The notes: a model not told the origin generated them from the sequence alone. A stretch of 64,000 nucleotides of DNA from a virus (IMGVR_UViG_3300032038_000062:1-64000), one strand, 5' to 3'; shown: positions 12,991 through 44,906, counted from the stretch's first letter. Numbers and translations: made by a program.

Positions 12991-13215
12991 AATATCCTCC
13001 TTTACTTTATAGGTAGGCGTGGGCAATAGTCCACGCTATCCTATTAAAATTAGTTTAGACTTCCAAAGTCTAAGCCCACTCGTTGGGCGGTTAGCATAGG
13101 CTAACTTTTATTTTCTTTGAAAAAACTATTGACAAAACCGAAAAAATATGATATTATATATATGTCAGTTAGAGAGCGAAGGCAAACCTAAATTGACAGA
13201 AAGGAAAGTGATAAT

Positions 13216-14110
13216 TTTGAATTTTGAAAACAAAATTGACCGAAGAAAAAAATATTATTTGGTTTTTGATTGTGAAACCGCGACTTTGCCCTTCGCGGCA
13301 ACCATTGAAGAACCAAAAGACAAACAAAAAATTGCTATTGCTAAACCATTAATTTATGACTTGGGATGGCAGGTAATTGACCGCAAAGGGAATGTATATT
13401 GCCGCCGCTCGTATTTAGTCAGCGAAATTTTTTCCGTTCCTGCGGTTTTTAATACCGCGTATTATGCAAGCAAGCGCCCGATTTATCTTGATAAATTGGC
13501 AAAAGGTGAAATTATCCTGACCGATTGGAAAACAGCCACTGCAAAACTAGAAGAAGATTTACAAAAGGTTGAAGCGGTCGGCGCTTATAACTCAATGTTT
13601 GACTATAAAAAAGCAATTCCATTTACAGAAAAATATATCAAGATGTTATATTCTCCATACTATTATAAATGGGAAGAAAAGCAAATTGAGCATTGCAAGC
13701 ACATTTTATCAACGCCATATTATAAAAGTGATAATGAATTTAACCCTGAGATTTTCGAATTTAGGGATAAACAATATGCACTTTTTGACCTTTGGGGGCT
13801 GAGTTGCCGCCACCTCTTAAACAATAATGAATACAAACAAACTTGCATTAATAACGAATGGAAAACGGCAAGCGGGAAATTTTTCAAAACAAGCGCAGAA
13901 ACCGCATTCAGGTTTTTAACAAAAAACAATGATTTTATAGAAAGTCACACGGCTATTGAAGATACTATAATTGAGAGCCAAATTTTGACCGAAATTATAA
14001 AGCGCACAAAAAACAAATTTGAATTGGGGATTATTTATTTTCCCTTCCGTGAACTCGGAACAGTTAAAGATTTTGAAAACACACACGACAATATTTTTGA
14101 TTTATTCTAA
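13216..14110 (+). CDS. DEDDh-family 3'-5' exonuclease (DnaQ-like), paralog A
   Basis: Exo I LVFDCETATLP, Exo II YNSMFDYKKA, Exo III HTAIEDTIIES. Start TTG or GTG near 13207-13216 after RBS AAAGGA. Conserved leader shared with paralog B. Confidence 0.7.
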
Positions 14111-14234
14111 AAGAAAAAGGTTACAGAAATGTAACCTTTTTCCTCCAAAACTACCTTAGACTTTGTAAGTCTAAACCCTATTTGACTTCTCTATAATTAT
14201 ATAGTATAATATAGATAATAAAGGAGGTAATAAT

Positions 14235-14597
14235 ATGGCAAGTCGTTCTCAATTAAGAGCTAAAATCCGTCAAAAATATCTAACCCAAATTCGTGATTTT
14301 CTCAAATCACAAGGCGAAGAAGTTTTACTGACAAAAAGTAACCAACTGGCGATTCCAACCTGTGATGACGAAAACAACGAAGAAACACTTACAATTACTT
14401 TTGCTGTCCCTCTCGGCTCTAAAGCAGATAATGAACCTTTTGACCCATACACCGCTGCGGAAGTTTACGCACAAAATACAGAAAATAAAAGGGTTGAGGC
14501 TGAAAAGAGAGCAAAAGCAAAAGCAGAAAAAATTAAAAGAGATAAGGAGTACAGAGAAAAACAAAAAGCAAACAAAAAGAAAGGAAAAGGCGCATAA
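14235..14597 (+). CDS. Lys-rich early protein, paralog B
   Basis: 120 aa; same architecture and KGKGA end as 9076..9468. Confidence 0.6.
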   Translation: MASRSQLRAKIRQKYLTQIRDFLKSQGEEVLLTKSNQLAIPTCDDENNEETLTITFAVPLGSKADNEPFDPYTAAEVYAQNTENKRVEAEKRAKAKAEKIKRDKEYREKQKANKKKGKGA

Positions 14598-14788
14598 GCC
14601 TTTTCTTTTTAGAAGAATTTAGACTTTAGAAGTCTAAATCTTATGCTGCGGCGGTTAGCATAGACTAACTAAAAAATTTTTTATAAATTTATAAAAAAGT
14701 ATTGACAAATTAAAAAATCTATGCTATAATTGTATTGTCAGTTAGGGAAAGACGTTAAATCTAAATTGACAGAAAGAGGTTGATAATT

Positions 14789-15670
14789 TTGAATTTTGAA
14801 AAAAAACTTGACCGCCGCCGCAAATACTACCTTGTATTTGATTGTGAAACGGCAACTTTACCCTACGCGGCAAATTTTGAGGGTAAGGCAAGACAGGCAA
14901 TTTCTATTGCTAAACCATTAATTTATGATTTGGGTTGGCAAGTGATTGACCGTCAAGGCAATATTTACCGCCGCCGTTCGTACCTTGTTAGCGAAATTTT
15001 CAGCGTCCCTGCGGTTTTCAATACTGCATATTACGCAAGTAAACGTCCGATTTATCTCGAAAAATTAAATAATAACGAAATTATCCTGACCGACTGGAAA
15101 ACAGCCACCGCAATATTAGAAAAAGATTTGCAAGAGGTTTGCGCCGTTGGTGCTTATAATTCAATATTTGACTTTAAAAAAGCGATACCATTTACAGAAA
15201 GATATATAAAAGCGTTGTACTCACCGCACTATTATAAATGGGAACGGCGGCAAAACGAAATCTGCGACCGAATCGCAAGCGGAGAAATTCAAGAGAATAA
15301 TCAGACTTTTGACCCAGAAAATTTTTTCTTTAGAGAAAAAAATTATCCGTTGTTTGACCTTTGGGGCTTAAGTTGTAAACACTTATTAAATAATGATGAT
15401 TATAAAAAATCTTGTATTATGAATAAGTGGGAAACGGCAAGTAAAAAATATTTCAAAACTTCGGCGGAAACTTCATTTAGATATTTAACAAAAAATGATG
15501 ACTTTGAAGAAGCGCACACAGCTATTGAAGATACAATAATTGAGAGCTTAATTTTTGCCGAAATTGCAAAACGTACTAAAAATAAATTTGAAATGGGAAT
15601 TATTTATTTTCCGTTTAGAATTTTAGGCACTGTCAAACAATTCAAGGAACTAAACGATATTTTCGATTAA
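14789..15670 (+). CDS. DEDDh-family 3'-5' exonuclease, paralog B
   Basis: About 70% identical to paralog A; motifs LVFDCETATLP / YNSIFDFKKA / HTAIEDTIIES. Start TTG at 14780 or 14789. Confidence 0.7.
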   Translation: MNFEKKLDRRRKYYLVFDCETATLPYAANFEGKARQAISIAKPLIYDLGWQVIDRQGNIYRRRSYLVSEIFSVPAVFNTAYYASKRPIYLEKLNNNEIILTDWKTATAILEKDLQEVCAVGAYNSIFDFKKAIPFTERYIKALYSPHYYKWERRQNEICDRIASGEIQENNQTFDPENFFFREKNYPLFDLWGLSCKHLLNNDDYKKSCIMNKWETASKKYFKTSAETSFRYLTKNDDFEEAHTAIEDTIIESLIFAEIAKRTKNKFEMGIIYFPFRILGTVKQFKELNDIFD

Positions 15671-15798
15671 AGAAAGAAAAGGTTACAGAAATGTAACCTT
15701 TTCCCCCCCAAAATTATTTTAGACTTTGTAAGTCTAAATCCTATTTGACTTCTCTATAATTATATAGTATAATATAGATAATAAAGGAGGCGAAGATA

Positions 15799-20770: not shown

Positions 20771-21634
20771 TTACACATACTTGTCCAAGCCGAATTCCTT
20801 CATAATCTTCTCGATATTGAAGTTATTTTGCATACAATCCTCAAGGGTAATGTAAACGCTATTTTCATCGAGAATTTTGTTCTCTACCACATACTGATGA
20901 AGTTCATCGTGACTCAATTTTTTCATTATATCCGTACCGTAACCAAAACTATAACCATAGTCAGTTAAATTAGGAAGAGTTTCAAGATACTTAAATCCAA
21001 TTCTACGCTCCCAAGAAGCGTTACAAAGAGGAAAAGTAACTCGCTTCAAATCAAGCGGCTCTCGCCAATTCTTAACATCAACTGTACAGAACACATTTTC
21101 TTTACTTTGAGTTGCTGAATAGAGAAATGCTTTAACCGCAACTCGAATACCAGAAAGTTCAAGACGATTAATTATAGAACAAATTGCAATTCCGCCTTTT
21201 ACAAAATCTTGGGCATCTGTACCGCAACAACTATTATTAGCATAACCAATAGTAAGAACACGGTTCTTTCTCATTACTTGGTCACGAGTCATCATAGAAT
21301 TGGGAAGACCAAGAATAGCATTGGGAACACAAGGAGCAAAACCAACAATTCCAGTTTTCATACCGCCCGCATTGACCTTTAAATCCTTATTATTCCTTAC
21401 AACACCGCGGTCAATATCTTTAATTGGACCCTCCCAGCCCTTTTCAAGGAGATTAAATGCTTCTTCAAGACTTTGAGTTCCAGTCCAACTAGTATCACTT
21501 TTTCCAGAAGAGTGCTCGTCCGACATAGCCTTATTATTTTGCGTACGTTTTCCAAGAGTTTGGACAAGATTACGTACGCCAGAAAAGTGCTCAAATAACA
21601 ACTTACTCTTTGTTACTTCACTATAATCTCCCAA
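20771..21634 (-). CDS. Hypothetical protein, downstream partner of the AAA+ ATPase
   Basis: 287-aa ORF 12 nt after the ATPase gene. No clear MIDAS motif. Confidence 0.5.
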   Translation of the reverse strand: MGDYSEVTKSKLLFEHFSGVRNLVQTLGKRTQNNKAMSDEHSSGKSDTSWTGTQSLEEAFNLLEKGWEGPIKDIDRGVVRNNKDLKVNAGGMKTGIVGFAPCVPNAILGLPNSMMTRDQVMRKNRVLTIGYANNSCCGTDAQDFVKGGIAICSIINRLELSGIRVAVKAFLYSATQSKENVFCTVDVKNWREPLDLKRVTFPLCNASWERRIGFKYLETLPNLTDYGYSFGYGTDIMKKLSHDELHQYVVENKILDENSVYITLEDCMQNNFNIEKIMKEFGLDKYV

Positions 21635-21646
21635 TCTAAAACCTCC

Positions 21647-22852
21647 TTAAATACAAGTTTTTAGAGCCTTATAATATTTATTGCTCTTATACTCCATATC
21701 GTTTGCGATGATGTTACGGTCATCAGTAGACAAGCCCTTCAAGAGAGAGATATTAAGAACAGTCTTAATATCCATAGTACCTTCGAGCTTAGCAATGCGC
21801 TCAATCGCACGATAGGTTGCAAGGTGATGGATATGTGCCTTTTGTACTGCCTTACGGAAATCGTGGATAAAGGTAATCAACTCGTTGTTGCCATTTGCAA
21901 CAGCTTCCTCAATCTTAGGAGAATAGTCAATCTCCATCAAGGCATACCGGTCAAGAGAAGCGGCGTCAAGCTGATAACGACCGGTATACTCAATATCGGC
22001 GCCAGTACCGTAAGTGTTACCCGCAGCGATTACTCGGAAATCTTCGTGCGCAGTAACCTGACCAGTAGGAAAGTCAAAGTAACCGTTTGCGATTGCCGCA
22101 TTCAAGATAATAAGAACTTCGGGAATAGAACCGTCCATCTCGTCGAGGAAGAACAAGCCGCCATCTTTAAAAGCCTTATAAAAGGCAGTTTCGTGGTAAT
22201 GACCGTTAGCGTCGATAAAACCAGTCAACTTATACTCCTGAGTTACAGCGTTGGTAAAATAGAAGTTCAAACCTAAACCAGCGGCTACTTGCTGTGCAAG
22301 TACGTTCTTACCAGTGCCAGCGGGCCCCGCCAAGAAAACGGGAATTGCGGCAGAAACAAGAGTGAGTACGTCATCAAACTTCTCGTGGGTTACGCCAGTA
22401 ATCTTATTAATTGCATTGGGAGTAACAATTTCATGGCGCTGAGGAAGAAAACCAAACTCGTCAATGAGTCTTTTACGAACTACAGGGTAAACTTCCTTAA
22501 AGATAGACTCAGTAGAAGCCTCCGCAACAGTCTTGAAGAATAGCTCTTCCAACTTGCCACCAAGACCACTGCTTTCTCCACCGGCGGGCACAGTAACACC
22601 AGACATAGGAACTCCATCATAGTTATGACGCATCTTTTCAAGAGCCTTTTCCGCAGCGTTCTTATGGAAAGCCGCACGCTCAATTACAGGAGCGGGCAAA
22701 CCTTTTCTACCAGCTTCAATGCTGTTAAACTTATTACGAGGGTCGTAGTAGTGTCCCTGAAAAAGCAAGTAAAGATTCTTGCCGCCCTTTGCGAACTCCT
22801 CAGTATCAATTACATAGGTAATATTATCTTTTGCATAAACTACAGTAAACAT
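21647..22852 (-). CDS. MoxR / CbbQ / CobS-like AAA+ ATPase (AAA_5 type)
   Basis: Walker A LAGPAGTGKN, Walker B LFFLDEMD, sensor region. About 170-aa N-terminal extension of unknown function. Confidence 0.7.
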   Translation of the reverse strand: MFTVVYAKDNITYVIDTEEFAKGGKNLYLLFQGHYYDPRNKFNSIEAGRKGLPAPVIERAAFHKNAAEKALEKMRHNYDGVPMSGVTVPAGGESSGLGGKLEELFFKTVAEASTESIFKEVYPVVRKRLIDEFGFLPQRHEIVTPNAINKITGVTHEKFDDVLTLVSAAIPVFLAGPAGTGKNVLAQQVAAGLGLNFYFTNAVTQEYKLTGFIDANGHYHETAFYKAFKDGGLFFLDEMDGSIPEVLIILNAAIANGYFDFPTGQVTAHEDFRVIAAGNTYGTGADIEYTGRYQLDAASLDRYALMEIDYSPKIEEAVANGNNELITFIHDFRKAVQKAHIHHLATYRAIERIAKLEGTMDIKTVLNISLLKGLSTDDRNIIANDMEYKSNKYYKALKTCI

Positions 22853-25034: not shown

Positions 25035-25835
25035 TTACTTTGAATCAATATCACCAATATCTACGATAGTGCCACCGTCCGTAGAAACCTTTGGCAACTG
25101 ACCATTCCACTTCTCGATTTCTTTATTCTTAATTACCTTATCTGTCAACGAATCGTTCAAAAGTTTATTTGCTTCGGCGTCACCTTCAGCTTTAATTTTT
25201 GCTGCTTCTGCCTCAGCCTGTGCATTTGTAATAGCGGTCTGCTTCTCAGTTTCAGCCTTCAAGAGTTGTTGCTGGGCAACCTGCTTCTCTTCAATCGCAT
25301 TAATGAAGGCATCTGAGAAATCAAAATCAACAATATTAACATCAGTAATATATAGACCAATCTCATTCAGCTTTTCATTAAGTCCAGTAACAAGTCCCTC
25401 AGAAATCAAAATACGATTAGTCACGCTCTGCTCAGCAGTATATTCCGATACAATAGCCTTTAGCACTTCATTTACTGCGGGCACAACAAGTACATTTTCA
25501 TAGTCCGCACCAATGTTCTTGAAGATACTATAACTCTTTGCACTGTCTACTCGATAGTTAATTGCCAATACCGTACTGACACTTTGAAGGTCTTTTGAGA
25601 ATGCTTCGGTATTAACTTCTAGCTTCTGAATACGGTTATCAATGTCTTCTACTGACTGCACAAAGGGCGCCTTAAAGTGGATACCCTCTGAGAGAACACC
25701 TTCCTGTACACTGCCCATCGTAACTACGACGCCAGTATGACCGGGACTTACAATCGTAAAACAGTTGAACAGAACGATGATTGCGGCAATCGCAATGACT
25801 CCAATAACAATAACTCGCTTAATCAATTTCTCCAT
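25035..25835 (-). CDS. SPFH / Band-7 (prohibitin, HflC-like) membrane protein
   Basis: N-terminal TM then an SPFH-like region (GHTGVVVTMG...) and a C-terminal coiled coil (QQLLKAETEKQTAITNAQAEAEAAKIKAEGDAEA). Confidence 0.7.
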   Translation of the reverse strand: MEKLIKRVIVIGVIAIAAIIVLFNCFTIVSPGHTGVVVTMGSVQEGVLSEGIHFKAPFVQSVEDIDNRIQKLEVNTEAFSKDLQSVSTVLAINYRVDSAKSYSIFKNIGADYENVLVVPAVNEVLKAIVSEYTAEQSVTNRILISEGLVTGLNEKLNEIGLYITDVNIVDFDFSDAFINAIEEKQVAQQQLLKAETEKQTAITNAQAEAEAAKIKAEGDAEANKLLNDSLTDKVIKNKEIEKWNGQLPKVSTDGGTIVDIGDIDSK

Positions 25836-25919: not shown

Positions 25920-26216
25920 TTAATATAAATCTTCACTATATAACTCGTTTTCAAGGCTATCGCGCTTTGCAACGAGAGTTGTAGTGCTTAATTGATGCCA
26001 CTCTTGAGCTTTTTCAAAAGCCTTATATCGGTCGTAAAAGATATTCCAATCATCAATAAAACCGTCTACCGTCGCGGTTACTTCCTTGTTCTTTATATCT
26101 GGTGAAAGCCGTTTGATATCTTCAAAAAGTTCATAACAATATGGGTGGCGGGCGCCGCAAACCATTAATTCCGTACCATCACGAAATTGAAATTTAACCG
26201 CCGCACTAACTAACAT
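25920..26216 (-). CDS. Hypothetical protein
   Basis: 98-aa ORF. Confidence 0.45.
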   Translation of the reverse strand: MLVSAAVKFQFRDGTELMVCGARHPYCYELFEDIKRLSPDIKNKEVTATVDGFIDDWNIFYDRYKAFEKAQEWHQLSTTTLVAKRDSLENELYSEDLY

Positions 26217-26226
26217 TTTAGCCTCC

Positions 26227-26532
26227 TTAATCTACCAATACGCCTGTTTTCGTATACCACCGATTTACAACTATGTGTTCTCGTCTTGGAAATACTTCAT
26301 AGGGCTGATTTTCATAGGAGTTTTCTTGATACTCTGTTAGACCAGCCTCCCACTCAACACAGAAGAACCTATTACCGACTTTAAAGATAGTTGTCATTGG
26401 CATCGTCCAGCGCTCTTTGTCGTAACTTTTTTGTTCATATTCTTCTAAAACATAGAACATATTTTCTATTTCTTCTTCGGAGAAGGTGTGACCGTTATCA
26501 AATTTTTCTAAAAAGTCCTTTTCATATTCCAT
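26227..26532 (-). CDS. Hypothetical protein
   Basis: 101 aa with the conserved promoter upstream. Confidence 0.45.
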   Translation of the reverse strand: MEYEKDFLEKFDNGHTFSEEEIENMFYVLEEYEQKSYDKERWTMPMTTIFKVGNRFFCVEWEAGLTEYQENSYENQPYEVFPRREHIVVNRWYTKTGVLVD

Positions 26533-26751
26533 ATTTATTTCCCTTTCTTAACTTTTCTATAATTATTATATCAAAAATATATAAAAAAGTCAAAAAGAAA
26601 AGGTTATCTTTTTAGTAAGATAACTAGTTTCTTTAAATATCTAACAATCCATTAATAAACAATAACAAAATTAATATAATAAACATACTAAGCCCAATCG
26701 TCTTCCATTAAAGTTCCACCGTTTTCTTCGAGCACTTTCTCTAATAACTCA

Positions 26752-28035
26752 TTACGGAAAGATTCCTGCATCTCTTCTGTATCCTCGCTTATATTCGTGG
26801 GGAAAGACAACTTCACCAATTCCATAGATATGATTCCTCCAAGAACTTACTATTAAAGCCACACTATATAATACTAAAGCAACGCAAAATACAACTTCAT
26901 AATTAAGTCCATTTTGTAATATAATTGCAGTAGTATTATTACCAGTTAATCCAGCAATAGCCCAAGCACTAAGCGCCAGTCCGTGGATTTCACTTACTTT
27001 TGAAAGTCCAAAATACTCTGTTAATAAGGCTGGTAATGTACTAAAACCGCCACCATAGCCAGCATTAACAACCAAAAGTAAAAGAACAATTATAAATGGT
27101 AGTATAGCTGAACTTCTAAATATAAGTGTAGAAATCAGCATAAAGATACAGCTAATAAAGATAATTTGATAAATTGTTTTTCTCGTTTTACAATGGTCAG
27201 ACAAGGTTGAGTAACCGATTCTGCCGCCAGCGTTAAATAAAGCAGTAATCATTGGAATTATAGCAGTCGCCGCAGCTAATCCAGTTAGATAAATATTGAT
27301 AATTTGTGTTTCATAGCTTATCAACATTAAACCACAATGGATATTAATAAAGAAGATAAGCCAAATTCTTCTAAAGTACCTATTCTTAAACATACTCAAA
27401 GAAAACTTTGGTATTTCTTTACTTTCAACCCAATCAATCGGTTTCTCTAATAAGAAATGACCGGTCATCATTATAATAAAATAAAAACCGCCTAAAATCA
27501 AGAACATTATCCAAATTCCAAACTGTGCGAGCAGCCAAGTCATAATGGGTGTGGCTATGGCTTTAGCTAAACCAAAACCAGCAATAGAAATGCCTGTTGC
27601 TAAACCCTTATTATCTTTAAACCATAGCATTAATGTTTTAACTGGTGAAAGATAACCTATTCCTAGTCCTATTCCCATTAATACACCATAGGATAAGTAA
27701 ATTCCTATAAGTGCTGGAATACCTTTTAATAATAGAATTGATAAACCAGTTCCTATCATACCACCGCTAAAGCATATTGCGGCGACAAGAGAAGATTTAT
27801 GAACATCTCTCTCAACATATCGTCCTCCAAAAGCCGCGGACATTCCCAAAAAGAAAATTGCTATTGAGAAAGCCCAGCCAACTGCAAATGGAGAAAGATT
27901 AACGTATTGCGCTATTTGGTCTTTAAAAGTAGACCAACAATATACTGTTCCTATTGAGCAGTGGATTAATAATGCTGGTATCGCGCCATTTAATATTTTA
28001 TTCCGTGTCATTATTCCTCCTTTATTCATATTCAT
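26752..28035 (-). CDS. MFS-type transporter (12 TM, OFA-like)
   Basis: 427-aa polytopic protein with MFS-like hydropathy periodicity. Confidence 0.65.
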   Translation of the reverse strand: MNMNKGGIMTRNKILNGAIPALLIHCSIGTVYCWSTFKDQIAQYVNLSPFAVGWAFSIAIFFLGMSAAFGGRYVERDVHKSSLVAAICFSGGMIGTGLSILLLKGIPALIGIYLSYGVLMGIGLGIGYLSPVKTLMLWFKDNKGLATGISIAGFGLAKAIATPIMTWLLAQFGIWIMFLILGGFYFIIMMTGHFLLEKPIDWVESKEIPKFSLSMFKNRYFRRIWLIFFINIHCGLMLISYETQIINIYLTGLAAATAIIPMITALFNAGGRIGYSTLSDHCKTRKTIYQIIFISCIFMLISTLIFRSSAILPFIIVLLLLVVNAGYGGGFSTLPALLTEYFGLSKVSEIHGLALSAWAIAGLTGNNTTAIILQNGLNYEVVFCVALVLYSVALIVSSWRNHIYGIGEVVFPHEYKRGYRRDAGIFP

Positions 28036-28321
28036 ACATCACATCATAACCGCGTGATTCTAAAAAATCATATATTTCCTTTGCCGCGCGACCTAATACT
28101 TCATAGGTTCTTCCCTTTCCATAAGAATCTTTCCATTCTATTATATATTGGAATTTTTCTGCAAGTTGTATATTATCTTTTACATCTTTTATAAAATTAT
28201 ATAAAGCTTTATGTCTAAAGGTACTTCTTTGACCTATTTCATAATAAACTTCAATATTGTATTCATAAATCGGTGGATGAAGGCTTACAGCTGGTGTTAT
28301 TATAAGGGTATATTCATTCAT
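28022..28321 (-). CDS. Small protein, Y-D-x-L-x-x-x-G-x-D-V family member 1
   Basis: C-terminal KEIYDFLESRGYDVMYEYE. Confidence 0.5.
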   Translation of the reverse strand: MNEYTLIITPAVSLHPPIYEYNIEVYYEIGQRSTFRHKALYNFIKDVKDNIQLAEKFQYIIEWKDSYGKGRTYEVLGRAAKEIYDFLESRGYDVMYEYE

Positions 28322-28704
28322 ATTTCCTCCTCACCAAATGGTAAATCAAGGGTTATTTTTTCTACAATACGTTCATCTGTTAAAATTACATCAAAATTCT
28401 CTTTAACTAACCAATCATAAATTTCCTCTTGAAAGTCTGTATTGCTATTAGATATATTTACAATACGATATTGTAAGTCAAAATGAGCACGGGCATATTC
28501 TTTAAATTTATTTAAACACACTTGACGGTCTTTAGAAGGATAAAATGTTTCGTCAAAAATACTACCAATTAATGGCATGACGTGAATAAAATAGCATTCT
28601 TCTGTGAAAGTACCATCAACTTGCACTATATATTTACTAAATTCCTCCCCAACTCTTTTTATGAGGTCAGATTTAGTTATAAGAGTAATTTTATTTTCTT
28701 CCAT
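28318..28704 (-). CDS. Small protein, family member 2
   Basis: C-terminal EEIYDWLVKENFDVILTDE. Confidence 0.5.
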   Translation of the reverse strand: MEENKITLITKSDLIKRVGEEFSKYIVQVDGTFTEECYFIHVMPLIGSIFDETFYPSKDRQVCLNKFKEYARAHFDLQYRIVNISNSNTDFQEEIYDWLVKENFDVILTDERIVEKITLDLPFGEEEI

Positions 28705-28706
28705 TA

Positions 28707-29018
28707 TTACACCTCAAACAGTACATCATTCTCGTGTTCTATCAATATATTATAAACTTCATTTATAAAATCTATCTCTTCTTTTGGGCTATCCTTTCTT
28801 GTTACGATAATAAAGGTGTATTGAGGAAGTGATATCGCCGCAGTCGCTATTTCTCCTAATACCGCAGTTTTATGACGAGAAGACGATGACATAAAATTAT
28901 GAGTCCAACATAACAAGTTAATATGGTGAGCCGAAAAACCAACCGAATAAATTACATTATCAACGGTTTGTTGTGCCATTAGAATTAGTCTTATTTCTTT
29001 CTTTTCTTTGGGTTCCAT
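28707..29018 (-). CDS. Small protein, family member 3
   Basis: C-terminal NEVYNILIEHENDVLFEV. Confidence 0.5.
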   Translation of the reverse strand: MEPKEKKEIRLILMAQQTVDNVIYSVGFSAHHINLLCWTHNFMSSSSRHKTAVLGEIATAAISLPQYTFIIVTRKDSPKEEIDFINEVYNILIEHENDVLFEV

Positions 29019-29300
29019 TTAATCACCTTCACCTTCCCATAATAAAACATCTACTCCGCATTTTAATAAATGGTCATATACACGCATCGTAAACTGTATA
29101 TCTTTTTCGTCTTTATCTTCTGTTATTTTTATATAAATCTGTTTTTCTTTCCATTCACAAAAACACCGCTCTTCAAGAAGAGTTATTAAATTATCCATTG
29201 TATTAATCCAGCCATCAATGGAATAATCACTATAACACATAACACAGTATTCATTTTTATTGTGCAGACAAAAACAATTTAAGAGCACTTTATTCTCCAT
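29019..29300 (-). CDS. Small protein, family member 4
   Basis: C-terminal MRVYDHLLKCGVDVLLWEGE. Confidence 0.5.
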   Translation of the reverse strand: MENKVLLNCFCLHNKNEYCVMCYSDYSIDGWINTMDNLITLLEERCFCEWKEKQIYIKITEDKDEKDIQFTMRVYDHLLKCGVDVLLWEGEGD

Positions 29301-29321
29301 AAATACCAGTCATCTTCCTTC

Positions 29322-29675
29322 TTAGTCCTCATTAATGCAATCCAAAACCCTTTTATCAAACCCAAACCAACTCTTCCATCCTTCACCTACTATCGTTTCT
29401 ACTTTAATAGTAACTTCAAGGCTAGGAAAGTAAGTCCTTAATTCTTGTACAAAAGTTTCATACATTTCTTTAACATTTTCTAAATTGCTATCTGTAAAAC
29501 CAAAACCTAAAACAACTCGTTTATCGGTTGTATATTCAAAAACAGTATTGCAACCTGAAATACTGTTTATAGCATTAATAGTTTTAATGGCTTTGTCATT
29601 ACTCTTACGAAAAGCCTTTAAATCATAAATATTCTTAGCTAAATTAATATAACCATAAGTTGTATATAACGCCAT
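29322..29675 (-). CDS. Small hypothetical protein (divergent or unrelated member of the array)
   Basis: 117 aa; lacks the C-terminal motif. Confidence 0.45.
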   Translation of the reverse strand: MALYTTYGYINLAKNIYDLKAFRKSNDKAIKTINAINSISGCNTVFEYTTDKRVVLGFGFTDSNLENVKEMYETFVQELRTYFPSLEVTIKVETIVGEGWKSWFGFDKRVLDCINED

Positions 29676-29687
29676 GTTCTTCTCCTT

Positions 29688-30026
29688 TTATCTAAACCAA
29701 AATTCTTCTTTTATCATTACATCCGCGCCAAGCTCTATTAATGTGTCATAAACGGCATTTGCATTTGCCATATTTATTTCGCTATTCATAGTTACATAAT
29801 AATGAGCTTCTGGGTGTTTTTTATAATAACTTCTAATACTATCTGTAAAAAATTCTAGCATCGTATCAGAACTAGCCGAAAAGGTTTGATCGGGTTTTCC
29901 CGGTTTAGCCCAAAAAAGTTTCATCCCAGTTTCTTGGCAAACTACTGATACACTTAAATCTATTAGCACTGGGTCTTCTCCAGAAAAGAAATCTTTTATT
30001 CTAATGTCTTTTACTTCCCTCTCCAT
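29688..30026 (-). CDS. Small protein, family member 5
   Basis: C-terminal NAVYDTLIELGADVMIKEE, with HYYV motif upstream. Confidence 0.5.
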   Translation of the reverse strand: MEREVKDIRIKDFFSGEDPVLIDLSVSVVCQETGMKLFWAKPGKPDQTFSASSDTMLEFFTDSIRSYYKKHPEAHYYVTMNSEINMANANAVYDTLIELGADVMIKEEFWFR

Positions 30027-30030
30027 TTAA

Positions 30031-30402
30031 TTATCCCCTATAAATCTCTGGCGGCTCCCACGTCCATTCTATTTCTTCTAATAGTATTACGTCTGCTCCA
30101 ATATTTACTAAAAAATTATATGTTTCATCAATTAGACCTTGTTCTTCTATGGTACTGTCATTATAATAAACAATATAGTAATGTAATTTTGGGTTATGAT
30201 GATAGTAATCAGCAAGTCCTTTTTTAACAAGTTCTATTTTATTTAAATTATCCTCATGATAAGGAATAGTATTATCAAGAGAAGATAACCATTCCGCACC
30301 AAATATTTTTATTTTATTTTCATTACTGTCATTTATTATTAAAACGCTGTTCTGCATAAAATGGGGGTTATTTTTAAAAAAATCTTTTACCTCTACAAAC
30401 AA
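30031..30402 (-). CDS. Small protein, family member 6
   Basis: C-terminal DETYNFLVNIGADVILLEE, with HYYIV motif upstream. Confidence 0.5.
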   Translation of the reverse strand: MFVEVKDFFKNNPHFMQNSVLIINDSNENKIKIFGAEWLSSLDNTIPYHEDNLNKIELVKKGLADYYHHNPKLHYYIVYYNDSTIEEQGLIDETYNFLVNIGADVILLEEIEWTWEPPEIYRG

Positions 30403-30421
30403 CTCTCCACTTCCAATCTAA

Positions 30422-30940
30422 TTACATATCGTCTGAAAACTCTTTAAATAAATTTTGAAGTTTTTCTACCGTATCTCCAGGTTCAACTAGAAAAGTTAAC
30501 ACTTTATCACTTGCATTACTTTTCCAATTTCCCCTAACCTTTATTTGCTCATTTCGCGCGACGTCGCATAAAAACTTCAAATATTCCTCCCAAGTTAAAT
30601 CAGAATATTGTTCTCTTGATAGCTGTACATCACTAACAAAACCGTCAGAATAATTACTACACCAATGGTTCTGGAAACTTTCATAATAACCCCAAATCGT
30701 CGCGGCAAGTTTTAAATTATTATAATATGTTTCATTATCTTTTTTCTGCGCCCAATAATTACCACCACATAGCGGAATAGGCTTTATTTTTTCCTCCGCC
30801 GCTTTGAGTAATTTCTTGGTAGAATCTACTCGTTCAAAAAAACTAGGATAATTTTCCTTAATTAAATTTAAAATAAATCTATCCCTCAATAATTTTGCTA
30901 ATTCTTCGTCTGTTAAATAATGACTCTTCTTAATATCCAA
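30422..30940 (-). CDS. Hypothetical protein
   Basis: 172-aa ORF. Confidence 0.45.
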   Translation of the reverse strand: MDIKKSHYLTDEELAKLLRDRFILNLIKENYPSFFERVDSTKKLLKAAEEKIKPIPLCGGNYWAQKKDNETYYNNLKLAATIWGYYESFQNHWCSNYSDGFVSDVQLSREQYSDLTWEEYLKFLCDVARNEQIKVRGNWKSNASDKVLTFLVEPGDTVEKLQNLFKEFSDDM

Positions 30941-31183
30941 TCACTCTTCCTCCGCATAGCAAATACTGGTAACATCTTTTGAACGAATAGGATATATTTC
31001 TTTTTCTTTAAGATGATTTTCTTTTACTCCATATAAGACTTTTCCAATCTTTTCTTCAAGAACTTCCACTTTTAATTTCTTAATACCTTCTAAAGTCCAA
31101 CCATTGGGTGGTGTTGCTAATCGGTATAATGTACTATCGCCGCAGTTTACAAAGACTTGATATTTACTCTTATCCATTATCAA
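30941..31183 (-). CDS. Hypothetical protein
   Basis: 80 aa with the conserved promoter upstream. Confidence 0.45.
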   Translation of the reverse strand: MIMDKSKYQVFVNCGDSTLYRLATPPNGWTLEGIKKLKVEVLEEKIGKVLYGVKENHLKEKEIYPIRSKDVTSICYAEEE

Positions 31184-31278
31184 TTCCTCCCTATTATTCT
31201 ATATATATTATACTAAAAAATATATAAAAAGTCAAAAAAAAAGAGTAGCCATTACAGCTACTCCTTTCTAAAAGTGCC

Positions 31279-32007
31279 TTAATTACCAAGAAAATATTCC
31301 CTCAACTCGCACTCGTGCTTCTTAAACTCTTTCGCCTCTTCTATTGTCAATCCGCCTACAAAAGAAGTAATCTTTTTAAGTGCTGTATCAAAATCATCGT
31401 CTTTACAATCTGCGATTAGCTTTTTAATTCGAGTTACGATTGGTGCCTCCTGCACTTCCTGCTTAGGAGTAATTTTCTTTTCACCAATATTCTTTTTGAG
31501 GAAATCTCCGATAGGAATAATAACCGGCTTAATTGAATTTTCGTCCTCTTTTTCATCTTGGTTCTTGTCATTAATAGGAGTAGCATTCTCCGCTAAAGCT
31601 CCAAAGAAAGCGTCAGCAGCTTCAATTACCTCGCTAGGAACATTTTTAATGCTACTTTTCTGCGCGGGCTTTTCGGGGTTTTTCGGAGTTTTTACTACTG
31701 CCTTTTGCTCTTTTTCCATTAATTCCTCAACAAAGGCTTCATAGACAGGGTTATCATAGGATACGATATCCTCAATCTCTTCAAGCTTATCGTCTTCTAT
31801 AGTCACAAAGAAGGCAATAAAATTACACAACCAATTCGCGCAAGAATCGCACAAATCATGGCTGACTCTTTCGTGTGGTCTGTTACCTTTCTTTACATAA
31901 AAGATATTATCAGCAATGTTGCCGCAACGCTCACAACGTTTTACGGGCATATCACTAGTGCGGGATAAAATTCTAAATAAATCGTTCATAATGACCTCCA
32001 TCATCAT
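31279..32007 (-). CDS. Hypothetical protein with N-terminal CxxC...CxxC zinc finger
   Basis: CERCG...CDSCANWLC. Confidence 0.45.
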   Translation of the reverse strand: MMMEVIMNDLFRILSRTSDMPVKRCERCGNIADNIFYVKKGNRPHERVSHDLCDSCANWLCNFIAFFVTIEDDKLEEIEDIVSYDNPVYEAFVEELMEKEQKAVVKTPKNPEKPAQKSSIKNVPSEVIEAADAFFGALAENATPINDKNQDEKEDENSIKPVIIPIGDFLKKNIGEKKITPKQEVQEAPIVTRIKKLIADCKDDDFDTALKKITSFVGGLTIEEAKEFKKHECELREYFLGN

Positions 32008-32366
32008 ATTTTAGTTATATTATGTTCTATATAATTAATAATCATAGGATTATGTATATCGTGTGAAAGTAAATAGAAATTGAGTTCTTTCTCTTCCCAG
32101 TTTGGTTTTATTTTATTGATGGGCGTTTTTAAATCTTTTGGAAAATCGTTGGGTGAGCAGAATAACAGCTTACTAACAAGTGTTAAACTACTTCCGGTCA
32201 TCTTTGTACTAAAGAAATCTATAATCTCTTTGGTACACATGACTTCTTCTTCTTTTCTCGTTTTTTCATTGCCTGAAAGTACAATTAAAATGCCTTTTAA
32301 TTCTCTTTGATTATCAAGCATTTTTAATGCTGTCTTAAACCAAGCACGATTAAGCGTATGTACCAC
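32004..32366 (-). CDS. Hypothetical protein
   Basis: 120-aa ORF. Confidence 0.4.
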   Translation of the reverse strand: MVHTLNRAWFKTALKMLDNQRELKGILIVLSGNEKTRKEEEVMCTKEIIDFFSTKMTGSSLTLVSKLLFCSPNDFPKDLKTPINKIKPNWEEKELNFYLLSHDIHNPMIINYIEHNITKI

Positions 32367-32367
32367 G

Positions 32368-32958
32368 TTACCACCTCACGTATACGTCTAAAACTCCGTA
32401 AGCACAACCAGTATCATATACTTTTCCTTCTCGTCCAAAAGGGGTGTCAACAATGCTATATCTTGGTAGCATACTCAAATCAGCAGCAAGCACGATATAA
32501 CCATCACCATCACAAACATATCCATCCTCAGTAGTATGTCTGCCAGGAATATTTAAACCATCGCCGGGCAAAACTAACTCACTGTAATAAGTCCAATTAT
32601 AGCCGCCCCAGCTAATCACCCCTGAATTTTGGAACTTGTCAGGAGAATACAGGGCGCCATTATCAACATTAGAACTAGCATAACTGTGACTCCTATCTTC
32701 TGCGTCTTCATTGTCCTCAGTCTTCTCACTTTCAACGGTTTCTGCCTTTATAGCTTTTGTTGTTGGTTGAGTGGTTTTTACTGTGGTCGGCTCAGCTGTG
32801 GTAGAGGTGGTGGTAGTTGAATCTACGGTTGTTACTACCTTTGTTACCTCTGTCATACTTTGTTCATTTGATTTTGAATCTGAATTACAGGCAGTAAAGG
32901 TTGAAAGACCTATTAATACTGCCGCGAGCGCTATAAAAGCTCTCTTAAAAAATTTCAT
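32368..32958 (-). CDS. Lipoprotein with C-terminal 3D (MltA-like / YocH-like) domain, putative peptidoglycan-acting
   Basis: Signal peptide with lipobox-like ...STFTAC, Thr/Ser-rich linker, C-terminal ...VDTPFGREGKVYDTGCAYGVLDVYV matching the 3D-domain Asp pattern. Confidence 0.55.
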   Translation of the reverse strand: MKFFKRAFIALAAVLIGLSTFTACNSDSKSNEQSMTEVTKVVTTVDSTTTTSTTAEPTTVKTTQPTTKAIKAETVESEKTEDNEDAEDRSHSYASSNVDNGALYSPDKFQNSGVISWGGYNWTYYSELVLPGDGLNIPGRHTTEDGYVCDGDGYIVLAADLSMLPRYSIVDTPFGREGKVYDTGCAYGVLDVYVRW

Positions 32959-33022
32959 TCAATTCCCCTTTCTTTTATTATAATATTATTATAATACTTT
33001 TTTCAAATATATTCAAATATTA

Positions 33023-39752: not shown

Positions 39753-39826
39753 TGGCGGCGCCGCCCAGACTCGAACTGGGAAGGACAGAATCAAAATCTG
39801 TTATGTTACCATTACATCACGACGCT
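39753..39826 (-). tRNA. tRNA-Gln (anticodon TTG)
   Basis: Hand-folded cloverleaf; anticodon loop TTTTGAT; A1/C72 unpaired (Gln-like weak 1:72); CCA encoded. Confidence 0.55.
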
Positions 39827-39935
39827 ATATCTATGGACTTTCTGATAGATGGGCAACTTCAACGAGAGGTTTTCTATCTTTTTGGTATCCATTACGAGGG
39901 CTTATCCCAACCAACCTATCACGTGAGTAGGAAAT

Positions 39936-40028
39936 TGGCGACGCGGGTGAGACTCGAACTCACACACCACCGAAGTGATTACTCAGGGATTAGCAATCCC
40001 CTATCTTACCAATTAGGCTTACCGCGCC
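39936..40028 (-). tRNA. tRNA-Ser (anticodon GCT), type II
   Basis: Long variable arm, loop TTGCTAA, T-loop TTCGAGT, CCA encoded. Confidence 0.7.
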
Positions 40029-40198
40029 AAATCTTTATCTTTATAGATAATCATAGCAAAAAAGTTATATATATAATCCTCTCTTATTACAAACTTAATA
40101 TCTATAACTTCTTGCCTATCGCGCTCTAGTTTTTCAATTTCTCGGTTTATTTTGTCTTCAAGTGTAGTCGGTTTTTGTTCAATTAATATTTTTACTTT
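40019..40198 (-). CDS. Small hypothetical protein inside the tRNA array
   Basis: About 59 aa from MKVKIL with RBS GAGGTAA; preceded by a repeated 150-nt element. Confidence 0.3.
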   Translation of the reverse strand, partial: KVKILIEQKPTTLEDKINREIEKLERDRQEVIDIKFVIREDYIYNFFAMIIYKDKDLAR

Positions 40199-40366
40199 CA
40201 TGTTACCTCGCATTTATATAAAATGAAGTAGATAAGGATTTGCACCTTATATGTGCCTTAGTATCCTCCAAAAAAATCCCGTACATAACGTCTCGGTTTT
40301 AATTACAGTCTGTTACCCACAGCAACGCTTGCGTCTACCTATTCCGCCACTACTTCATATATCTAC

Positions 40367-40442
40367 TGGCACGCCTAGAGGGACTTGAACCCACAACCAG
40401 CTAGTTCGTAGCTAGCTACTCTTTCCATTGAGCTACAGGCGC
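40367..40442 (-). tRNA. tRNA-Arg (anticodon ACG)
   Basis: Anticodon stem GCTAG/CTAGC with loop CTACGAA; T-loop TTCAAGT. Confidence 0.7.
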
Positions 40443-41758
40443 ATATTAATCAGTCAAAGCAACAACAATAGCAGCCGCAACAGCCACAGAGAGAAACAAT
40501 CCTATTAAAATTCCTATAATAATAATGGGTATAAATATATTAACATAACCCAAAAATATTAAAATAGCAAAAAAGACGATAAAAATAAGGGAGATATATA
40601 CAATACTTTTGATTTGATTTCTTTTCATATAATCAATGATACGGTTAAATTTATTCTTCAATGCAGTATTCCTCTACAAAATAATGTATTCCACTCCTAT
40701 AAGCAATTGAATCAAGTTCTTCAATAGAAAGACCTTTTACTTTTTCTTCATCTATTGCCCAAACAGCAACAAGCGCATTCTCAGCCATTACTTCATCGAG
40801 CATCTCGTAAAATTTTTCCTCGTCTTCACTATCTTCTTCGCTAAGACAGTTGGTAGCTCTTTCTCCGAGAGAGGTCATAATATCATCGTAATCGTCCATA
40901 AGATTCATACATCTCTCAAAGCAGAAATCACAGGCGTCATTCATATCTTTAGCTTCGATAACGCCAGAGTCTTCAATGCCATGAAGACCTTGGTAGATAT
41001 TTTCTGTTGCATAGTAGTAAAATCTGCCCATACTATCCCTTCTTTCTTTTCTTCTTCTTTTGTCCTCCACGGAAAGAAATTTTGGTATCAAAACCGTGGT
41101 TAGTAATCTTATCATCATTAGTAAGTCCGATAGACTCTCTACGCTCAGCGGCGGTACGCTCTAAAGAAAAATATTCCTCTATTGCTAAATAGATGTCTAA
41201 GGGATTAATTAACTCAGCAAAGCCGCTTGCCTTTAAAAGAGGAATATCATAGATTATAGTACGCTCATTATTACGATAACCATACTCTACGCTTAAACTA
41301 TACTCCTTTGTATAATTACCCCTATTAATTGCATCAATAGCAATTTTATGCTTTCTATCTTCTGTCTTTGCTGACCAATGAGCAAACCAGTCATCGCCTT
41401 TTAACTTGATATAATTAAATGAAAGGAGTTTTCTATCGGTATTATAATTTGTCCAAGTTAAAACGAGATTAATAATATAATCTTTTACGTAGCCGTAGTC
41501 ATCTAAGTCAAGAACCTTAGCCTCAAACAACCAAAATCTATTACATACTTGGAGTAAAATATATGAAATTTGACCCAGTTTATTAATGCCGTAAGTAATA
41601 TAATTTAAACCTTTACAAACTTCGTCTTTAGTAAGAATAAAAGACCTAGTTCTATCGAAAGTTACTGTTTTATCGGGATAAACACCTTGTAAGTAATCAT
41701 AGAAGTCGTAATTCTTGTCTATAATCTTCACAATAGAACTCCTTTCTTCGATATTATT

Positions 41759-41835
41759 TGGAACCCCGACTCGGATTCAAACCGAGGACATACCGCTTAG
41801 AAGGCGGTTCTTCTGTTCAGGCTGAAGTACCGGGG
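41759..41835 (-). tRNA. tRNA-Arg (anticodon TCT)
   Basis: Anticodon loop CTTCTAA; T-loop TTTGAAT. Confidence 0.6.
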
Positions 41836-41844
41836 TATATAATG

Positions 41845-41918
41845 TGGACCACCAAGCGGGAGTTGAACCCGCGCCTTTTGGTTGGAAGCCAAATATTCTA
41901 CCGTTAAACTACTGATGG
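41845..41918 (-). tRNA. tRNA-Gly (anticodon TCC)
   Basis: Stem TTTGG/CCAAA with loop CTTCCAA; T-loop TTCAACT. Confidence 0.65.
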
Positions 41919-42211
41919 ATATTCCAGCTGTTAATAAACCGCTGGCGCTTCGAGCGGATTGCCTACGATAAAATCATTGAAAATTGTGTAGTAATCGCCT
42001 TCTGATACAAGCCACAGCTCTTCAAATTCAAGAGCATAAAGATTACCGATAATAGACTTTGCGCGAACCTTTAGACCATTGCCGTCCTCGACAAAAACCT
42101 CTTTATCACACTTTGCTGCAAGTGCGGTAATAGTTTCGGCTTCCTTTACTGTGTCCATATAGATTTTTGCTCTCATAAGAACCTCCTAAAAATTTTAATA
42201 CCCGAAAGGGC

Positions 42212-42294
42212 TGGTGGTAGTGACAGGATTCGAACCTGCACGCCGAAGCCATACCTTCTAAAAGTACGTTGTCTGCCAATTCCAGCACACTACC
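42212..42294 (-). tRNA. tRNA-Leu (anticodon TAG), type II
   Basis: Acceptor GGTAGTG/CACTACC, loop TTTAGAA, T-loop TTCGAAT. Confidence 0.55.
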
Positions 42295-42301
42295 TTATAT
42301 G

Positions 42302-42386
42302 TGGTGCCAATAATCGGACTTGAACCGATACGCCCGAAGGACAAGAGTGTTTGAGACTCCCGTGTCTGCCGTTCCACCATATTGGC
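42302..42386 (-). tRNA. tRNA-Leu (anticodon CAA), type II
   Basis: Loop CTCAAAC; T-loop TTCAAGT. Confidence 0.65.
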
Positions 42387-42544
42387 ATATTCAAGACACT
42401 TTTATATAACTTTCTCATTCCTTAAATAAGTGTTGTATAAATAAAGTTGCTGTAAGTGTCTTTTATTTCTCTCTTAACTTTCTATATATATTATAACAAA
42501 TATATTATAAAAAAGCAAATTAATATATTGATTTATAAATAAAA

Positions 42545-42616
42545 TGGTGGGAAATGGTGGATTCGAACCACCGCTACTGTCACAAACTAGCGTGCTACCA
42601 TTACACTAATCATCCC
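42545..42616 (-). tRNA. tRNA, possibly His (GTG); acceptor and anticodon stem imperfect
   Basis: T-arm GGTGGTTCGAATCCACC and CCA present; anticodon assignment tentative. Confidence 0.4.
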
Positions 42617-43061
42617 ATAATATACCAATAGTAGGACTACTGCCCTACTACTGGCTTTTAATTTATTCTGATTTATTTTCCGCAAAGCCGCCAGAAAGCA
42701 GCATTAACGGCAACAAATTATCTGTTGAACCCTCATTCTTATTCAAAAGCAAAAACATAAGTGGATTAATCTTATTTGAACCACCCATCGCCATCATCAG
42801 TGCCATCGTACTCATATCCAAACATTATCACTTGCTATGTCACCCTGTAAAATCATAGACATTGGCTCTTCCATCAAATTTCTCCTTTCTTTCTTCTTTT
42901 GGTGCACCACCTCGGTACTGCCCCGAGCATCCCCAAATTAAAAGTTTGGTGCCTTACTTCTTGGCTAGTGGTGCTAATTAAATTATCAAAGTACAAAACA
43001 CAAGTTCAGGGTTATAAATTAAAAGTTTATTCCTAAATTATAATTGCTGTATGTGTCTATG

Positions 43062-43135
43062 TGGTACGAAGGGAAAGAATTGAACTTTCATCTATCGCTT
43101 ATCAGACGATTGCCCTGCCATTGTGCTACCTTCGT
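43062..43135 (-). tRNA. tRNA-Ile (anticodon GAT)
   Basis: Loop CTGATAA; T-loop TTCAATT. Confidence 0.65.
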
Positions 43136-43409
43136 ATATGACTGGAATTTATCTCGTTAGTCCAGTGGCTCCGGCATCCCTACTTCTATCCCGCGTGAGC
43201 TAGCGGCAAGATTTACTTTGCGTCTTTATTAGTCGTTTTCCACTAAAGCCACATATCACTAACTTAAAGTTGAGTGCCGGTGGTAGTTTAATCTTGAAAT
43301 CCATGATAACGACCTCTGAGTGTTCCTGCGTAGCAACAGTTATCCTTTGAGAATGGGTGGTTGATAATCCGAAACCGCCAACGATTGAACGCGTTATGCT
43401 ACTAAGCGC

Positions 43410-43486
43410 TGGTACTCCATATTAGAATCGAACTAATGACCTCCTGTTTGTAGGACAGGCGCTCTAACCTGCTGAGCTAATAGAGT
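43410..43486 (-). tRNA. tRNA-Val (anticodon TAC)
   Basis: D-stem GCTC/GAGC; anticodon stem CCTGT/ACAGG with loop CCTACAA. Confidence 0.55.
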
Positions 43487-43764
43487 ATATGGTGACCGAG
43501 TGTGCAGTTAGTCGACTGGTGTAACCTCCCAGCGCTTCAATCACACGCATCCCCATTGGATTTCACAAACTTTTATACTAGGACTTCCGCGGCGAACTAC
43601 CTCGTTGAGTTGTTACTCAATGTGTTCCAATTAATTAGGGCTATATTTTCTTCTCGGCTTTTAATACTTGCCTATCGGTCAAATAGTAGTAATTGGTTTA
43701 GCCTATCGTTTATAGTGCCGTTGAGACCGATTGGACTACTACTAATCTCCTCTTGCACTTATTG

Positions 43765-43837
43765 CGACTCCAACGGGACTTGAACCCATGACCTCTAGCG
43801 TGACAGCTAGCGTTCTACTCTTCTGAACTATGAAGCC
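43765..43837 (-). tRNA. tRNA, probably Asp (GTC); CCA not encoded
   Basis: T-loop TTCAAGT; anticodon region CTAGC-TGTCAC-GCTAG has a 6-nt loop as read. Confidence 0.45.
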
Positions 43838-44051
43838 ATATCAGGGCTTTAAGGTCAGCCAACCGCACATTTGTTGATTGCTGGAATTTTTGCTTTTCCA
43901 ATCTCTTAATTGTAACTTCATTTATCGTTTCTAAAGTTTTCTTTCCTTAACTTTCTATATATATTATAACAAATATATATTAAAAAATCAATTTTTCTTT
44001 TCTTTTATCTTTTACGAATAATAGCTACTTAATTTTTCACCAGAAAATATT

Positions 44052-44127
44052 TGGTAGAAGCTAGGAGAATTGAACTCCTGACCTGTTGTTTGCAAGACAA
44101 CTGCTCTACCAGCTGAGCTAAGCCCTC
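44052..44127 (-). tRNA. tRNA-Ala (anticodon TGC)
   Basis: G3:U70 identity pair present; loop CTTGCAA. Confidence 0.65.
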
Positions 44128-44191
44128 AGATATTGGGTTATTGTTGCACTATCAACTACTTACAAGGTCCTCTTACCTAAGCCCATATTAA

Positions 44192-44267
44192 TTGGCACGG
44201 CTCAAGGGATTTGAACCCTTATCCGAGGTTTTGGAGACCCCTATTCTAGCCCATTGAACTATCGCCG
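44192..44267 (-). tRNA. tRNA-Trp (anticodon CCA), acceptor base imperfect
   Basis: Loop CTCCAAA; T-loop TTCAAAT. Confidence 0.5.
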
Positions 44268-44900: not shown

Positions 44901-44906
44901 CAAACA

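Follow-up and report, generated by a model that had tools for sequence, protein, structure and literature searches.

The 64,000-nucleotide (nt) stretch of viral DNA analysed here (IMGVR_UViG_3300032038_000062:1-64000, the whole of which we call the window) comes from a large phage of rumen or gut metagenomes, and carries on its minus strand, at 28022-30402, a tandem array of seven small open reading frames (ORFs) of 93-128 amino acids (aa). As judged from their sequences, six of these seven genes make up a previously unnamed protein family that is real but very narrowly distributed, and for which the model of one copy predicts an RNase H/RuvC-like fold. We hold this structural and evolutionary description of the family to be quite probable. 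What the six proteins do is a matter for a more tentative proposal, namely that they may be non-enzymatic binders of host or phage macromolecules with a role in host takeover or counter-defence.

All seven ORFs lie back to back exactly where the initial annotation of this DNA had placed them, with gaps of -4 to 21 nt between neighbours and a purine-rich Shine-Dalgarno-like stretch 5' of most of them. We name them in transcription order g7, g6, g5, g4, g3, g2 and g1; the family members are all but g5. Near their C-termini the six share the consensus (I/V/T)-Y-(D/N)-x-L-x3-(G/N)-x-D-V-(L/M/I), preceded by some 15-20 residues by a hydrophobic strand of the (H/Q)-Y-Y-(I/V) type, and both elements are present in the six of seven genes for which they had been described. 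The first gene, g7 (30031..30402, minus strand like all genes of the array), starts with TTG and encodes 123 aa with the motif TYNFLVNIGADVIL; it is also the copy that was used for the structure model. Next to it, g6 (29688..30026; 112 aa; motif VYDTLIELGADVMI) is a paralog of g7 along its full length. Beyond g5 follow g4 (29019..29300; 93 aa; motif VYDHLLKCGVDVLL), which has seven cysteines, and g3 (28707..29018; 103 aa; motif VYNILIEHENDVLF), where N replaces the usual G, a G being found at that motif position in most g3 orthologs. The array then closes with g2 (28318..28704; 128 aa; motif IYDWLVKENFDVIL), which has a C-terminal tail of 20 residues, and g1 (28022..28321; 99 aa; motif IYDFLESRGYDVMY), the first 4 nt of which are shared with the end of g2. 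With isoelectric points of 4.5-5.4, net charges of -4 to -12 and a hydrophilic composition, the six are small, soluble, acidic proteins and, going by the model of g7, would be single-domain ones.

That these genes form a tandem paralogous family, as had been suggested, is borne out by significant profile-profile similarity for all six members. Scanned against the 545 stop-to-stop segments that the window contains, the pattern Y[DN]x[LIVMF]x5[DE]V[LIVM] gives six matches, all of them in the six family genes, and residue shuffles give a mean of 0.07 matches and a maximum of 2; a scan of the window with both the motif and a family hidden Markov model (HMM) found no further members. For an HMM-HMM comparison, one profile was built per gene from the orthologs of related metagenomic phages, with two neighbouring genes, g8 and g9, serving as controls. 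In hhalign, all 15 pairs among the six ortholog groups reach an expect value (E) of at most 0.005, and every pair that includes either control has E >= 0.08. Each group also aligns with the other five combined (E 8e-11 to 5e-5), in the same register as the motif; the individual values include E 7e-9 for g3, 2.2e-8 for g2, 2.3e-5 over 37 columns for g4 and 5.2e-5 over 51 columns for g1, and the controls score 0.29 (g8) and 0.65 (g9) against the family. The longest pairwise match is that of g7 with g6 (100 columns, 95% hhalign probability), followed by g7 with g3 (64 columns, 95%) and g7 with g2 (44 columns, 92%). Plain BLASTP within the nine-protein set already detects g6-g7 (E 6.5e-11 across 109 aa), as well as similarity along 36-63 residues for g2-g6 and g3-g7. 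The shared region thus comprises the C-terminal half to two-thirds of each protein (37-66 columns), well beyond the 15-residue motif, and the earlier statement that the rest of each protein is unrelated has to be given up, most plainly for g6 and g7 with their alignment across 100 columns. Recent duplication or gene conversion was considered as a source of the similarity and rejected, the sole DNA-level repeat being a 19-nt motif-coding stretch of 84-89% identity.

The seventh ORF, g5 (29322..29675, minus strand; 117 aa), lacks the motif, as had been noted, and the family profile does not pick it up (E 0.23 with hhalign, E 9 with the HMM). We considered whether it might be a very divergent member, given that MAFFT set its MYETF under IYDFL, and rejected this on the profile value and on its different predicted topology, which is ferredoxin-like (beta-alpha-beta-beta-alpha-beta); g5 is therefore an unrelated insert. 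It is highly conserved, with an invariant C-terminal segment, SWFGFDKRVLDC, and matches no known family.

The motif had also been said to fit no family that could be named, and this stands. Searches of Pfam, PHROGs and PADLOC with all seven array proteins, and of NCBIfam with g7 and g5 (g7 being the only family member used there), returned chance-level matches only, and the Pfam models RuvC, RuvX and RNase_H have no match at E <= 1 in any of the six. Among PDB sequences, the six-member family profile found no credible match and no nuclease match; the best hit, TRAPPC2 (E 0.39), was rejected as noise. With regard to defence and anti-defence catalogues, PADLOC gave only a 13.5-bit chance-level match for g7 and PHROGs none below E 0.04, no dedicated anti-defence library (dbAPIS, AntiDefenseFinder) having been searched. 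There was likewise no hit at E <= 0.1 in GenBank phages by tblastn with g7 and g2, none in GenBank phages or PLSDB plasmids by near-identity DNA search with positions 26000-33000 of the window, and none by exact-protein look-up of g7, and the literature yielded nothing specific to such a family.

In order to obtain a structural view, an AlphaFold2 model was computed for g7, alone among the six members, from an alignment of 73 sequences drawn from the whole family. It has a mean predicted local distance difference test score (pLDDT) of 72.6 and a predicted template modelling score (pTM) of 0.67, the C-terminal half reaching pLDDT 80-90 and the N-terminal strands 66-77. After two short helices, the chain is modelled as a single domain of topology beta-beta-beta-alpha-beta-alpha-beta, with beta1 at residues 19-25, beta2 at 30-34, beta3 at 44-47, alpha1 at 52-69, beta4 at 74-79 (containing HYYIV), alpha2 at 85-100 (with Y95 and L98) and beta5 at 104-109 (DVILLE). 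This is the three-layer alpha/beta core, beta1-beta2-beta3-alpha-beta4-alpha-beta5, of the RNase H-like superfamily, and the fold matches of the model are all RNase H-like nucleases; Foldseek against viral models (BFVD) placed phage RuvC resolvases at the top (E 9e-4, TM score 0.5-0.6). We therefore predict an RNase H/RuvC-like fold for the family. In the model, the conserved C-terminal stretch, alpha1-beta4-alpha2-beta5, forms the core of one domain, in which E-I-Y-D-x-L would provide the buried face of alpha2 and G-x-D-V-x-L the turn that leads into beta5. With such a core, the role of the N-terminal parts would be to complete this one fold and not to form domains of their own, as modelled for g7 and extended by us to the other members. 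This does not agree with the idea, put forward at the outset, of a common adaptor domain joined to variable targeting domains: the proteins have only 93-128 aa, and the C-terminal module, which constitutes the core of a single domain, is too small for an independent adaptor domain.

The residues that the family conserves do not look like those of an enzyme's active site. Only I77, Y95, L98, D104 and V105 are invariant or nearly so across the family, and in the model all five look structural; from our reading of the fold, D104, at the N-terminal end of beta5, would lie away from the canonical active-site side. In the group consensus sequences, the six paralogs have no carboxylate in common where beta1 ends, nor behind beta4 or beta5, and D25, with which beta1 of g7 ends, is retained by just about 40% of the orthologs of g7. 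Because the active-site carboxylates of RuvC, YqgF, RNase H and integrase are not conserved, the family proteins are probably not nucleases, and most likely they are non-catalytic altogether.

Ortholog comparisons put the divergence of the copies in perspective. The N-termini had been called hypervariable, and this could not be maintained: orthologs are 63-83% identical in their N-terminal parts and 83-88% in the C-terminal module, and the pairwise ratios of nonsynonymous to synonymous substitution rates (dN/dS) of the six family genes range from 0.16 to 0.67, g2 being highest at 0.5-0.67. Diversity-generating or otherwise hypervariable behavior was rejected on account of this conservation. 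It is between paralogs that the N-terminal 40-50 residues are mostly unalignable, a divergence which is old and does not reflect any ongoing hypervariation. Since the related phages have a separate ortholog for each of the copies, the tandem duplications appear to have taken place well before the sampled phages diverged. The corresponding dN/dS values are 0.12-0.17 for g5, 0.04-0.06 for g8, about 0.2 for g9 and 0.03-0.09 for the MFS transporter gene that follows the array, and the family is thus under purifying but relaxed selection and evolves faster than its MFS and g8 neighbours.

In a library of 1.84 billion representative proteins, an exhaustive HMMER search gave the family profile 16 matches at E <= 1e-3, of which 11 are small proteins of the family and five are ankyrin-repeat proteins, to which we return below. 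Leaving the latter aside, the database homologs are orthologs of individual array genes, 59-100% identical, from ENA, Logan and JGI metagenome assemblies; those of g4 alone fall into 18 clusters that span this whole range of identity. Several homologs carry the labels STEW19, RUG and TONG22, which we take to denote rumen datasets. The same block, in which genes of 80 and 172 aa precede the array and the MFS transporter gene follows it, recurs on related contigs of 57-138 kb (related loci are designated here by L and a number). A comparison of copy number, as had been proposed, revealed that gene content differs between related phages. In two of them g5 and g4 are separated by an additional gene of 112 aa (L006, 10586-10924; L007, 9571-9909), which is not in the window; its motif is degenerate (ITMDFFYKHEIECLV) and it aligns in register with the family over 51 columns at E 0.022, such that it may, doubtfully, count as a seventh, highly divergent member. 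In L012-L014 the corresponding position shows a gap of about 350 nt, into which this gene would fit. L014 is without g7 and keeps g6 and the other family genes, and the short, unrelated contig L008 (1-1540; Logan SRR16020867) consists almost entirely of at least four tandem, strongly divergent members of 89, 100, 123-130 and 127 aa, a sign that a more distant phage underwent an independent expansion of its own. One syntenic phage contig, L015 (CACYJD010000002.1; 29.3 kb), was binned in the rumen metagenome-assembled genome (MAG) "uncultured Erysipelotrichaceae bacterium RUG11995", which is either a weak hint at an Erysipelotrichaceae host or a binning artefact. Beyond L015, a bacterial genome collection gave no match to g5, the embedded gene that was used as a proxy for the family, and g8 as a query in IMG/VR retrieved no related locus. 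On present sequence data the family is confined to this phage clade.

The array is part of a larger transcription unit. Upstream of it, on the same strand, lie g8 (30422..30940; 172 aa), which is strongly conserved and has only sub-threshold matches in family libraries (E >= 0.049), and g9 (30941..31183; 80 aa), the first gene of the operon, both of them outside the family. Upstream of g9, a near-consensus sigma-70-type promoter, TTGACT-17-TATAAT (31207..31235, minus strand), stands directly after an intrinsic-terminator-like hairpin with a 15-bp stem and a T-run (31237..31269, minus strand) that closes the preceding transcription unit. The promoter is the same in seven loci, and the 100-nt intergenic region that holds it and the hairpin is almost invariant in these seven, at a dS of 0.2-0.6 in nearby coding sequence. 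No promoter of consensus quality was found inside the array. Directly downstream of g1 lies the MFS transporter gene (26752..28011, minus strand; 419 aa), and because the next promoter of such quality, TTGACT-17-TATAAT with an extended TG, occurs only downstream of the latter (26593-26565, minus strand), where the following transcription unit starts, g9-g8-g7...g1-MFS is the probable transcription unit.

The MFS gene, an unusual auxiliary gene for a phage, matches Pfam MFS_1 (E 8.9e-24) and, in NCBIfam, the L-lactate MFS transporter (4.5e-70, below the cutoff) and the oxalate/formate family (3.5e-38). Its start is probably the ATG at 28011 and the annotated one at 28035 wrong, given that the former follows a perfect ribosome-binding site (AAAGGAGG) and yields 419 aa as in the orthologs, which are all of this length and, between related phages, share 95-99% identity. 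The MFS gene follows g1 within about 10 nt in all loci that extend far enough (the window, L001-L007, L011 and L015).

Promoters of this type are frequent in the window, where 31 sites differ from TTGACT-N17-TATAAT at no more than one position (1.3 expected), and much of the phage therefore appears to be transcribed by a host sigma-70-type polymerase. On the plus strand the sites occupy 6579-15773 (17 sites, a small ORF following most of them), a stretch that resembles a block of early genes; on the minus strand they extend over 20707-60348. Many have the extended -10 TG, and the spacer often starts with TTTTTTATA, which suggests an extended promoter consensus specific to this phage. By its promoter, the array would belong to an early or middle transcript.

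The explanation that we favor, tentatively, is as follows. The six family genes would be co-transcribed with g9, g8 and the MFS gene from the sigma-70-type promoter, by the host RNA polymerase if the promoter type is any guide; each paralog would then present one and the same scaffold with a diverged surface, by which it would bind, stoichiometrically, a different host or phage macromolecule; and the array as a whole would act as a non-enzymatic accessory function in host takeover or counter-defence. Large phages commonly carry tandem families of small accessory proteins, and the early host-takeover gene clusters of large lytic phages sit behind strong sigma-70 promoters. The small size and acidity of the proteins, the promoter type and an evolution faster than that of the neighbours all fit an action against host factors or defences, none of them specifically, and a binding role in host interaction or anti-defence is plausible.

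Several observations weigh against this proposal. First, dN/dS stays below 1 throughout, with no sign of the positive selection that would be expected in an arms race. Second, the strict linkage between the array and the MFS gene is left unexplained by a set of binders. Third, the beta1-beta2 turn of g7, g6, g3 and g2 contains an acidic residue that is semi-conserved, so that some copies might, with low probability, still bind a metal. Fourth, the structure model is only moderately confident, particularly in its N-terminal beta-meander, and the predicted fold derives from one modelled member of six. Finally, the functional part of the proposal draws on analogy and on what size, charge, promoter type and evolutionary rate suggest.

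The second of these points gives the best-surviving alternative its force, that is, that the array proteins are cytoplasmic accessory or regulatory partners of the MFS transporter, involved in its gating, assembly or metabolite handling. A single upstream promoter serving array and transporter alike would agree with this, as does the constant distance between g1 and the MFS gene. Six diverged paralogs for one transporter are, however, hard to explain, and the MFS gene evolves 5-20 times more slowly than the family genes, with no signal of co-evolution. The loss of g7 from L014 with retention of the others speaks in the same direction, on a contig that ends before the MFS position, and we know of no MFS accessory protein with the RNase H-like fold of the g7 model. 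On balance we consider such a partnership unlikely.

Lower still we place two further ideas, on a par with each other. One is a narrower version of the binder proposal, in which the proteins would be catalytically dead decoys or inhibitors of RuvC/RNase H fold, one for each host nucleic-acid-processing or defence machine, such as RuvC/RNase H-fold effectors or junction-processing enzymes; in this specific form we regard it as decidedly unlikely. The other, to which we give just as little weight, takes the six for immunity, antitoxin-like or superinfection-exclusion proteins, arrayed like the immunity genes of polymorphic toxins. Immunity-gene clusters are typically tandem arrays of small, diverged, acidic paralogs, which is what we observe, and the family bears no enzymatic signature. 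Yet the operon and its flanks, where many neighbours are of unknown function, yielded no recognisable toxin-like gene, and the search of the bacterial genome collection, with g5 as the query, produced a single phage-like MAG contig only.

Slightly less probable again is that the genes encode active small nucleases of RuvC/YqgF type, be they junction resolvases or RNA-processing enzymes, duplicated to serve different substrates. The exclusively nuclease-like fold matches would favor this, as would the size of the proteins, which is near the 120-150 aa of YqgF/RuvX, and the fact that four of the six groups have an aligned acidic residue in the beta1-beta2 region. Nevertheless, the three active-site positions have no conserved carboxylate, D25 of g7 varies even among its orthologs, and the Pfam nuclease models find nothing; the C-terminal helix with the last catalytic residues of RuvC is missing, since in the g7 model the protein stops right after beta5; and a net charge of -4 to -12 is unfavorable for binding nucleic acids.

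This leaves the ankyrin-repeat proteins. Five of them (P0092, with 20 stretches, P0094, P0099, P0100 and P0102) are matched by the family profile, each in many stretches that cover profile positions 79-98 only, and the three whose sequences were read (P0099, P0100 and P0102) contain DVY(D/H/N)LLV(S/N)(K/E)GADVS or a close variant. Judging by sequence, the second ankyrin helix with its loop is the motif's only outside resemblance and comes nearest to giving the motif a name, but the resemblance is a local one, most likely through convergence on a helix, a glycine turn and an extended segment. That the motif is a remnant of an ankyrin-type repeat, and the proteins degenerate ankyrin-like interaction modules, is very improbable despite these five matches, given that the similarity is limited to about 20 residues and to one element per protein without TPLH or first helix, that no Pfam Ank model is matched at E <= 1, and that D-V-x-L is modelled as a sheet-paired beta-strand and not as a hairpin loop within proteins whose whole length resembles RNase H-like folds, an alpha/beta sandwich which, if correctly predicted, would therefore refute the ankyrin interpretation.

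As for the wider setting of the array, its flanks are rich in accessory-type genes, among them those for an SPFH/Band 7 protein (25035-25835, minus strand), a MoxR-like AAA_5 ATPase with its DUF7192 partner (20771-22852, minus strand), a nucleotidyltransferase and phosphoesterases. A 2292-aa protein with a C-terminal DUF6273 is encoded at 50538-57416 (minus strand), and the DUF2828/DUF7788 protein at 60364-61836 (minus strand) shares 38-44% identity with proteins of large Bacillus, Synechococcus and gut phages. Together these data indicate a phage of about 130 kb without a close relative in GenBank. A cluster of 24 tRNA genes occupies 39753-48500 (minus strand); for one of them, at 43764-43837 (minus strand), ARAGORN reports a four-base anticodon (gtca) and no amino-acid assignment, for which possible readings are a tRNA-Asp whose anticodon loop is enlarged and a tRNA resembling frameshift suppressors. 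Four other paralogous pairs were noticed: 8233-8616/11691-12116 (69% identity), 9076-9468/14235-14597 (42%), 13148-14110/14780-15670 (74%) and 35174-35620/35571-35933 (36%). Gene duplication thus seems to be frequent in this phage, mostly in the promoter-rich block of the plus strand.

Taken together, we argue that the array already offers a well-delimited new family whose operon is defined and whose fold is probable, which is useful for annotation and as a list of candidates, and that its constant linkage to a phage-borne transporter of the lactate or oxalate-formate type provides a further lead. Should the six proteins indeed be binders, they would represent six related scaffolds with different specificities from almost unstudied large rumen or gut phages, possibly of Erysipelotrichaceae, and would add a nuclease-derived, catalytically dead fold to the phage accessory proteins. 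Were they decoys, they would constitute a new structural class of phage counter-defence proteins, diversified by tandem duplication.

The closest known fold is that of the RuvC/YqgF (RuvX) branch of RNase H-like proteins, as represented by the RuvC of Lactococcus phage 67 (PDB 4ktw), RuvX (7ess) and the RuvC domain of Cas12f (8dzj). From these the array family differs in having no detectable sequence relationship to them, no conserved set of catalytic Asp and Glu residues and no helix after beta5, in being strongly acidic, and in occurring as six diverged tandem copies instead of one gene. With ankyrin repeats (..V..LL..GADVN.) the likeness is confined to helix 2 and the following turn, which locally resemble (I/V)Y(D/N)xLxxxGxDV(L/M/I), whereas in the array family this single-copy element is predicted to lie within a beta-alpha-beta unit of a sheet. 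The third comparison is with the small-protein multigene families of large lytic phages, the early host-takeover clusters. Here the likeness is one of genomic style only, with no sequence or demonstrated functional link to a characterised takeover or anti-defence protein, and it consists in the packed operon, the small acidic proteins, the consensus host-type promoter and the variable gene content that the array has in common with them.

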